Shown: positions 61,895 to 62,963 of the stretch, piece after piece | How positions within the stretch are numbered: the first letter of the stretch is position 1 | How the letters are laid out: each line of letters opens with the position of its first letter | Program-made: the position numbers and the translations under genes | DNA from: Escherichia coli 042 | Lineage (GTDB): Bacteria; Pseudomonadota; Gammaproteobacteria; Enterobacterales; Enterobacteriaceae | Length of the DNA: 64,000 nt | Strand: one strand, 5' to 3' | NCBI RefSeq assembly: GCF_000027125.1 | Contig: NC_017626.1 | Notes under the pieces: generated by a model | What the model was told of the DNA's origin: nothing | The model's input: the letters and a program-made list of their open reading frames with translations, nothing else | The model's database searches: none

Positions 61895-62234
61895 GCTCGT
61901 CCTCTTCCTCTGTTTCCGGTGGATTTCTGCGGCGGCTTACCGGGTCAAAACCCAGCAAAGAAGCCATTTTGATCATTATTCTTTCTGCGTCAGCCTTTGC
62001 GCTCAGGGCGGGGTTTCTGCTCTCACTGCCCTGACTGTTAACAATGCTGAATCCGCGCGTCGCAAGGTCTTCGACGGCTTTGCGGTATATGGAGTAGTTA
62101 ACGCAATACAGCTCCAGATTGCTCCAGTCGGCGGGGGTAAGGTCTTCCCGCCCGGAAAGCTGGCGCGATTTTTCCTTCCACTGCCTGACCGCGATTTCAT
62201 CCAGGTAAGCGGGGGCTTTTGGTGGTCTTGCCAT
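61878..62234 (-). CDS. terminase small subunit (P27-family-like)
   Basis: Start taken at the internal ATG (MARPPKAPAYLDEIAVRQWKE...), giving about 118 aa directly upstream of and overlapping TerL. Confidence 0.65.
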   Translation of the reverse strand: MARPPKAPAYLDEIAVRQWKEKSRQLSGREDLTPADWSNLELYCVNYSIYRKAVEDLATRGFSIVNSQGSESRNPALSAKADAERIMIKMASLLGFDPVSRRRNPPETEEEDELDRLA

Positions 62235-62522
62235 GTTCTTTTTTCGCCCAATTATTTTCAAAAAAATTCCCGTGCACAAAAATTTGAGGAGGCGGTCGGT
62301 GTCCGGCAGGGACGGTTTCGTCCTGAAAACCTCCCCCACCCCCTCTGACAGCCTCACCAGCGATTGCGAAAACATTCCATGACCTCGCGGTCACGGTCGG
62401 TTAATCGCTTCGGTGTGGTGCGTTCTGTGCGCCCTGTCCTGTTGACTTTGTGCCCTGTCTCCTGTGTCTTCCATAAGTCACGCTGCCTTATCAGTCCACG
62501 TATCAGCCTGTTTTGCTCCTGT

Positions 62523-62963
62523 TCAGTCATCATCGCCATACATCCAGTCGTTACGATGTGCCGCCCGTTCTTCCTGCTCGCGATACATGCCCGCCTTACG
62601 GTTCGCTTTCGTGGCTGGATCTTCCCGTGTCGTCTTACGGTTGTGGCACGTCTGGCACAATGCCTGGTGGTTCCACTCAGGCCAGAAGAGAACATCACCG
62701 CCGCCATTGATGGGAATGATGTGATCCACCACAAGAGCTGGCGTATAAATCCCCTTAGCCAGACAACGCACGCATAACGGGTTTTTGCTCAGGTACAGGG
62801 CGCGGTATTTGTCCCACTGCCGGGAATACCCACGCGCGCGGCGGTGCCCCCGTCTGGCATCCTCTGCACGCCATGCAGCCCGCCTGTGCTCTTCACACTT
62901 GCCGGACTTCACGCGCTTATTACAGCCCGGCTCAGTGCATCGCCTTAATGGTTGCCACGGCAT
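62523..62963 (-). CDS. HNH endonuclease (terminase-associated)
   Basis: 146-aa ORF with Cys-rich HNH motif (DHIIP...NHQALCQTCHNRKT) adjacent to the terminase genes. Confidence 0.85.
   Translation of the reverse strand: MPWQPLRRCTEPGCNKRVKSGKCEEHRRAAWRAEDARRGHRRARGYSRQWDKYRALYLSKNPLCVRCLAKGIYTPALVVDHIIPINGGGDVLFWPEWNHQALCQTCHNRKTTREDPATKANRKAGMYREQEERAAHRNDWMYGDDD

Follow-up and report, generated by a model that had tools for sequence, protein, structure and literature searches.

What lies between the HNH endonuclease gene and the small terminase subunit (TerS) gene of a prophage-like block in Escherichia coli 042, and to which element does it belong? We analysed a 64,000-nucleotide (nt) stretch of this genome (NC_017626.1; hereafter the window), in which an initial annotation had placed a small basic open reading frame (ORF) and a possible cohesive-end site (cos) of an HK97-like phage between these two genes. 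We conclude, with a probability of about 0.75, that in this region the end of the packaged genome of a capsid-forming phage-inducible chromosomal island (cf-PICI) meets its start, that the region comprises a real small gene and a gap carrying cos, and that this satellite is inserted in the large terminase subunit gene (terL) of a prophage. The small capsids that cf-PICIs make for themselves are filled with cf-PICI DNA alone, and the basis of this specificity is left unexplained in the cf-PICI papers cited here. Read along the minus strand, the order is portal, connector, HNH, small ORF, gap, TerS and TerL, as follows.

>64000..63255, minus: portal gene, cut by the window end
63262..62963, minus: gp6-like connector
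62963..62523, minus: HNH endonuclease of the satellite packaging module (Pfam HNH, 8.8e-10; PHROG 144, 3.6e-45)
62530..62354, minus: small basic ORF, 58 aa (PHROG 3173)
62353..62235, minus: gap between the HNH side and TerS, 119 nt
62234..61878, minus: satellite TerS, P27 family, 118 aa with a short N-terminus, ATG at 62234 (Pfam Terminase_4, 1.6e-23; TIGR01558, 6.7e-18)
61894..60233, minus: satellite TerL, complete, 553 aa (Pfam TerL_ATPase and TerL_nuclease)
58981..59706, minus: C-terminal remnant of the resident prophage terL, split by the satellite (nuclease profile positions 64-283 of 286)

A capsid-forming satellite inside a prophage terL gene

The packaging module of cf-PICIs is defined by the order capsid-protease-portal-connector(s)-hnh-terS-terL (Alqurainy et al., bioRxiv 10.1101/2022.09.08.507074), on a backbone of 10-18 kb with int, an alpA-type regulator and a primase/replicase, and without tail or lysis genes. 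The window holds the C-terminus of the portal, the connector, HNH, TerS and TerL in this order. The full order is seen in NZ_CP196316, a RefSeq-annotated copy of the satellite that is 98.7% identical and runs through integrase, helix-turn-helix regulators (alpA-like), Icd-like, DUF927 primase, SSB and PerC to a packaging module of capsid, protease, portal, connector, HNH, hypothetical protein, TerS and TerL. As the window stops inside the portal gene, the PICI backbone, about 15 kb long and free of tail and lysis genes, is visible in NZ_CP196316 only.

Pseudogene halves of a prophage terL lie on both sides of the satellite block in NZ_CP196316. In the window, 526 non-coding bases separate the end of the satellite TerL from the truncated prophage terL, beyond which lie a second portal, a protease, a capsid gene and tail genes. 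Rejoining the two terL halves at a TTGGTAA core gave a rebuilt empty site of 684 nt, and 905 of 5426 complete E. coli genomes have an intact terL that matches it without a break (99-99.6% identity). The gene order in NZ_CP196316, the flanking terL halves and the rebuilt terL together identify the HNH-ORF-TerS-TerL block as a cf-PICI satellite of about 15 kb, separate from the HK97-like prophage to which it had initially been assigned and in whose terL it is inserted. Virion ends mapped to this block would accordingly belong to small satellite capsids and not to the prophage, and in genome annotation the block should not be merged with the prophage that adjoins it. The formation of small capsids and the need for helper tails only have been established experimentally for the cf-PICI EcCIEDL933; for the window element they are a prediction.

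Helper-embedded PICIs have been catalogued with terminase insertion sites, such as A:Terminase_1:245/246 (Mageeney et al., PMC10111431). The model element of that study has no terS and is presumed to use the helper cos, whereas the window element has its own complete packaging module and cos. The helper-embedded configuration (PMC10111431), in which the element sits in a late gene of a prophage and excision restores that gene, is thus seen here for a cf-PICI that carries its own terminase.

A conserved, non-coding gap upstream of terS

We compared the gap among 37 representative satellites less than 93% identical to each other; all identities for the blocks below are mean pairwise values in this set, and distances are counted from the predicted nick, with +1 at window 62288.

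62345..62330, minus: G-block GAGGGGGTGGGGGAGG, -57..-42, near-invariant in the 37 satellites
62329..62317, minus: TTTTCAGGAC(G/A)AA motif adjoining the G-block, with a short GGTTTT/AAAACC dyad around CAGGAC (G-block and TTTTCAGGAC motif together, 62345..62317, identity 0.76)
62316..62303, minus: variable spacer patch, identity 0.45 against 0.76-0.89 in the flanking blocks
62302..62283, minus: C-rich block ACACCGACCGCCTCCTCAAA holding the predicted cut, identity 0.80
62298..62289, minus: predicted 10-nt 3' cohesive end CGACCGCCTC, with the gene-sense nick predicted at 62289/62288
62282..62252, minus: TTTTT-GTGCACGGG-AATTTTTTT-GAAAATAA, candidate TerS-binding (cosB-like) region, identity 0.89, the most conserved stretch of the region
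62266..62260, minus: T7 tract, +23..+29
62251..62235, minus: variable spacer and terS ribosome-binding region, identity 0.58

With identities of 0.76-0.89, against 0.63 for the 3' coding end of HNH and 0.77 for the TerS coding sequence, the gap blocks are conserved about as well as the flanking genes. The description of the gap as GC-rich fits the 71 nt next to the small ORF (65% GC); the whole gap is at 51%, equal to the window, and the 48 nt next to TerS are at 31%. The TerS frame of the window is open across the whole gap up to an ATG at 62375, giving a 165-aa ORF. We rejected this ATG as the TerS start because the same frame holds an in-frame stop within the gap in 29 of the 37 relatives. 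These stops, together with spacer lengths that vary among relatives by non-multiples of three, show that the gap is non-coding.

Such conservation directly upstream of terS could in principle be mainly regulatory for terS-terL, through an internal promoter, an attenuator or a structured RNA leader, and the G-block and C-rich block are able to pair in an RNA fold. No promoter-like site was found on the gene strand, however, and the sole gene-strand terminator-like hit (62396..62377) lies outside it, within the small ORF. The gap has no Rfam match, its RNA fold is not unusually stable (z-score -1.05), and changes in the patch of spacer that separates the blocks show no evident compensation. The same layout moreover occurs at the mapped genome ends of phages HK97 and EPP-1. 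We therefore regard a mainly regulatory gap as very improbable.

A probable cohesive-end site in the gap

The virion DNA of cf-PICIs has cohesive ends, and in HNH-dependent systems cos lies between HNH and terS (PMC9410871; PMC11331095). The 119-nt gap occupies this position, between HNH with the small ORF and terS. A profile of the satellite gap found the Edwardsiella phage EPP-1 by nhmmer (E 0.0015 in 143 kb) and matched it across the junction of its linear record; HK97 and the Acinetobacter phage AbIPP1 were not found. The EPP-1 sequence was 'corrected using PhageTerm' (OQ910326; PMC11043334), and its record starts with CCCCAATTTTT, which aligns with window 62288. The metagenome contig IMGVR_UViG_3300022664_000095 (L114; 15,518 nt) starts with CTCAAATTTTT, equivalent to the same position. 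Together with the conserved blocks and the HK97-type layout, these record ends indicate that the gap very probably carries the cohesive-end site, in line with the initial annotation.

In 17 of 17 relatives that carry both an intact region and a shared 46-nt marker at the portal end, this marker precedes the equivalent of 62288 by exactly 1265 nt. An 18th relative, L225 (IMGVR_UViG_3300011606_000011), was left out of this set owing to a large deletion: its portal end lies 182 nt, not 1265 nt, from the predicted cos start, so that the connector(s), HNH and small ORF are gone, with the G-block and cos still present. In L114, 1255 nt follow the marker, so that by length the contig is exactly 10 nt short upstream of its own start, the outcome expected if end repair during library construction removed 10-nt 3' overhangs; the 3' overhang of HK97 is equally long. 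Two virion-derived sequences lack DNA around the predicted cut: 31 nt to its left and 38 nt to its right (69 nt) are missing from LR881103 (Klebsiella vB_KppS-Ant), and about 73 nt and 62 nt (about 135 nt) from PQ569648. As a separate observation, LR881103 has a 2.3-kb gene past terL (L002:2036-4333) annotated as 'tail length tape measure protein', an odd annotation for a satellite said to be without tail genes.

The spacing of the blocks agrees closely with that of HK97, in which the overhang is 10 nt and 3' (Kala 2014; PMC9410871; PMC11331095) and TerS, at its minimal binding site, recognises a G and the adjacent A-tract (PMC11331095).

G-block or G-run: window element -57..-42; HK97 -56..-43
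T7 tract: window element +23..+29; HK97 +24..+30
TerS minimal binding site: HK97 +15..+29
TerS ATG: window element +55; HK97 +50

The distances from G-block to cut and from cut to T-tract are 41 and 22 nt in the window element, compared with 42 and 23 nt in HK97, and GCACGGG with the T7 tract falls at +14..+29, inside the most conserved stretch (62282..62252). In HK97, with gp2 as its TerL, cos lies between HNH (gp74) and TerS (gp1) and the cut falls in a C-rich stretch, as proposed for the window element. Between the end of the G-run and the end of the genome there are 40-42 nt in both HK97 and EPP-1, and a G-block followed by a C-rich stretch is also present in EPP-1, in AbIPP1 and in the resident prophage in its intact form. 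The comparison with HK97-like cos sequences that had been proposed for this locus thus succeeds for layout and spacings and fails for sequence: local alignment of the gap with HK97 cos scored 17, no better than shuffled sequences (16.4 +/- 2.4). As HK97 TerS also belongs to a family other than Terminase_4/P27, the parallel is one of layout and not of demonstrated homology.

We also considered a cos in the same gap that is nicked instead at the dyad GGTTTT-CAGGAC-AAAACC beside the G-block (about 62323). This motif hardly varies and has partial two-fold symmetry, the end of LR881103 falls exactly at ...TTTTCAGGAC, and the contig L219 ends within the adjoining G-block. Against it, the left end of LR881103 lies about 70 nt away, not 10, and the 31 and 38 nt missing from this record are centred on the cut in the C-rich block. 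EPP-1 and L114 both start within the C-rich block, and the HK97 end, 42 nt past the G-run, corresponds to the same position. A cut at the dyad is therefore improbable, and we place the nicks in the C-rich block.

From this arrangement we infer the following order of events. Transcription would proceed from HNH through the small ORF and the gap to TerS and TerL, with the small ORF translated by coupling to HNH. TerS would bind the G and T7 element, which lies downstream of the cut by about two helical turns, and TerL with HNH would nick the C-rich block in staggered fashion, on the gene-sense strand at 62289/62288 and on the other strand 10 nt upstream, so that the cohesive ends would be 3' and 10 nt long. 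Upstream of the cut by about four turns, the G-block would be the last conserved element to reach the motor; it may be a termination or nuclease-positioning element, helping to place or to stop the motor.

The small ORF is a real gene that looks satellite-specific

The product of the small ORF (MTEQEQNRLIRGLIRQRDLWKTQETGHKVNRTGRTERTTPKRLTDRDREVMECFRNRW) has 58 aa with 12 Arg and 3 Lys and a predicted isoelectric point (pI) of 11.1. Its start overlaps the HNH stop by 8 nt (ATGACTGA), and its end lies 119 nt (62353..62235) before TerS, so that the initial description of an Arg/Lys-rich frame of about 58 aa that overlaps the HNH end and stops about 120 bp before TerS was accurate. ORFs of such length are unremarkable by chance, with dozens in the ORF list of the window, and the case for a gene thus depends on conservation and not on the mere existence of the frame. 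The RefSeq annotation has a start three codons further upstream, which gives 61 aa; diverged relatives keep only the 58-aa start, with its ATGAxTGA overlap, and not the 61-aa start.

The protein gives an end-to-end match to PHROG 3173, a family of unknown function (E 2e-28; all 57 profile positions, 1-57, align with residues 4-60 of the 61-aa form). This is the sole family found, with no match in Pfam, NCBIfam, PADLOC or the PDB, the last searched by sequence and with Foldseek. A profile search of 1.84 billion representative proteins recovered only 21 clusters (at 50% identity), all of about 50 aa, with the pattern M-x-E-x-E...L...L-x-R-x-R-D/E...RDRE-x-x-EC-F-RNR and a conserved C-terminus, RDRExxECFRNR. 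Distant members, at 28-50% identity, occupy the same HNH-ORF-gap-TerS slot, with gaps of 119-129 nt, in otherwise typical cf-PICIs. By tblastn against 50,697 phage records, the family was found in only three, each itself cf-PICI DNA, and the gene therefore looks satellite-specific. An AlphaFold2 model (predicted local distance difference test score 77) predicts two helices, at residues 3-32 and 45-55, joined by a basic, disordered linker of low confidence.

In moderately diverged pairs, Nei-Gojobori dN/dS values are 0.14-0.34, with an excess of synonymous change (binomial P 0.002-0.015). On this comparative sequence evidence the small ORF is a genuine gene, translationally coupled to HNH. The alternative, that it makes no functional protein and that its conservation reflects DNA signals (cosQ-like) in its 3' part, has points in its favour. 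The best conserved part is the 3' 42 nt, the closest E. coli copies differ by 1 synonymous and 7 non-synonymous changes, and the ORF is disrupted in 7 of 59 distinct natural variants (L003, L010, L041, L078, L079, L054 and L058), being cut short at codon 42 by a stop, frameshifted by an 11-nt deletion or almost wholly deleted, with the G-block and cos blocks intact in all. Yet the synonymous excess recurs in five independent pairs, the protein pattern persists at identities as low as 28-50%, the C-terminal motif shows wobble changes, and the coupled start is conserved. The deletions in L054 and L058 remove the 3' part itself and keep the G-block and cos, and a likely homologue, described below, has a complementable mutant phenotype. 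A purely DNA-level explanation is accordingly very improbable.

A likely homologue in EcCIEDL933 and the role of the small protein

EcCIEDL933, the prototype of the cf-PICIs, has DNA with cohesive ends and shares with the window element the module order capsid-protease-portal-connector-HNH-small ORF-TerS-TerL and the layout of the gap. It differs in having two connector genes, where the window element has one, and a 93-aa ORF past terL that the window element lacks, and it is inserted between roxA and phoQ instead of in a prophage terL. Mutation of its packaging-module genes abolished transfer for all except 'hypothetical gene 1792' (bioRxiv 10.1101/2022.09.08.507074); the 1792 mutant had a severe transfer defect that complementation repaired, with normal replication and an unchanged helper titre (bioRxiv 10.1101/2022.09.08.507074). 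The cos site is not mapped and gene 1792 is assigned no role in either bioRxiv 10.1101/2022.09.08.507074 or 10.1101/2025.02.11.637232.

The EcCIEDL933 capsid gene is 'gene 1786' (He et al., 10.1101/2025.02.11.637232). On the EDL933 chromosome we found capsid, protease, portal, head-closure, connector, HNH, small ORF, TerS, TerL and a 93-aa hypothetical gene in this order. The small ORF, 82% identical to that of the window, is the sixth gene past the capsid, which with consecutive numbering would make it 1792, and a vacant slot in the RefSeq tag series of EDL933 (RS08730) fits it. By its number, gene 1792 is most likely the homologue of the window ORF, and the natural disruptions in 7 of 59 variants fit an important but dispensable gene. 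We had also considered OR845787 (host ATCC 43895) as EcCIEDL933 and ruled it out, as its best E. coli matches reach 97.5% and none is O157.

The basic, predicted two-helix protein would thus aid packaging or transfer of the satellite without being strictly required. That it acts at cos has somewhat less than an even chance, by our estimate. Action elsewhere, in head assembly or completion or in regulation, is less likely still. In its favour, the published phenotype is reduced transfer only, nothing links the protein to DNA, and its gene closes the morphogenesis half of the operon. On the other side, the gene is coupled to HNH and adjoins cos, the protein is very basic (pI 11), and cryo-EM of the EcCIEDL933 capsid showed no additional decoration proteins (10.1101/2025.02.11.637232).

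The satellite TerS is short at its N-terminus. Its domain begins at residue 17, compared with residues 49-94 in phage homologues of 154-201 aa, and the basic N-terminal extension of about 30-45 residues seen in those homologues is missing from the 118-aa protein. It is a rather unlikely proposal that the small protein is a satellite-specific factor for cos recognition or termination that works with this shortened TerS and HNH. The further notion that the small ORF stands in for the missing TerS arm found no support in sequence, and we treat it as speculation only.

Points against the proposed junction

Several observations weigh against this reading or parts of it. The cut position of the window element is inferred from sequence and record ends, and the 10-nt deficit of L114 from lengths only. 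LR881103 (Ant) ends exactly at ...CAGGAC, 32 nt upstream of the predicted cut, and the ORF stop or the G-block is where further metagenome contigs end, which could reflect poor assembly across G and C runs. The non-significant alignment with HK97 cos, the different TerS family of HK97 and the seven disrupted small ORFs belong here too. So does the assignment of number 1792, which leans on assumed consecutive numbering, and fold and family searches with the small protein gave no hint of DNA binding; the DNA-binding accessory role suggested in the initial annotation is a guess.

Comparison with other packaging systems

EPP-1 resembles the satellite in its P27-family TerS, its HNH protein and the match of the gap profile across its termini; it differs in being a full tailed phage with a TerS of 201 aa and in having HNH and cos without a small ORF in between. 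Right behind gp74, HK97 carries a 67-aa ORF that is not annotated (L088:595-798; TAATG overlap), and AbIPP1 a 72-aa ORF in the same slot (L090:1042-1260). Neither is like the satellite ORF, and the slot is thus reused by unrelated small genes. An intact resident-type prophage, NZ_CP122768 (L226:5368-5512), has an HNH-TerS gap of 145 nt without a small ORF; the order of G-block and C-rich stretch is the same, the sequence is different and the T7 tract is more distant. Its TerS has 160 aa and carries the basic N-terminal extension that the satellite TerS lacks.

In phage lambda, cos consists of cosQ, cosN and cosB, with 12-nt 5' overhangs, IHF and R sites and no HNH protein. The satellite gap is similar in its proposed three-part plan, in which the nicking site has one element upstream of it and, on the terS side, a region for TerS binding; given the different overhangs, the lack of HNH in lambda, its IHF and R sites and the unrelated sequences, this is an analogy only. 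Rpp and Ppi are small satellite proteins that retarget the helper TerS. Like them, the small protein is satellite-encoded, small and affects packaging; it has no sequence relation to either, and the 1792 mutant leaves the helper titre unchanged.

Repeats behind the satellite terL

Within window positions 59999-60151 there are three tandem GCGGGTTA repeats, at 59999, 60008 and 60016, and, about 80 nt past them, three inverted TAACCCGC repeats, at 60101, 60122 and 60144. The two sets border an AT-rich stretch in the non-coding tail behind the satellite terL, and look like iterons, origin sites or recombinase arm sites.

Implications for satellite packaging

The type of element and the gene family were already known, and a mutant of the small gene has probably been made before, in the prototype. 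The new points are the prediction of cos at nucleotide level and the apparent satellite-specificity of the small gene. If the small protein were indeed a cos-recognition factor, the satellite terminase would cut only its own cos, despite a layout shared with the prophage cos, which would account for the finding that satellite and helper are packaged in a mutually exclusive way. With a nucleotide-level cos and an accessory gene found only in satellites, the question of how cf-PICIs achieve their packaging specificity becomes directly testable.

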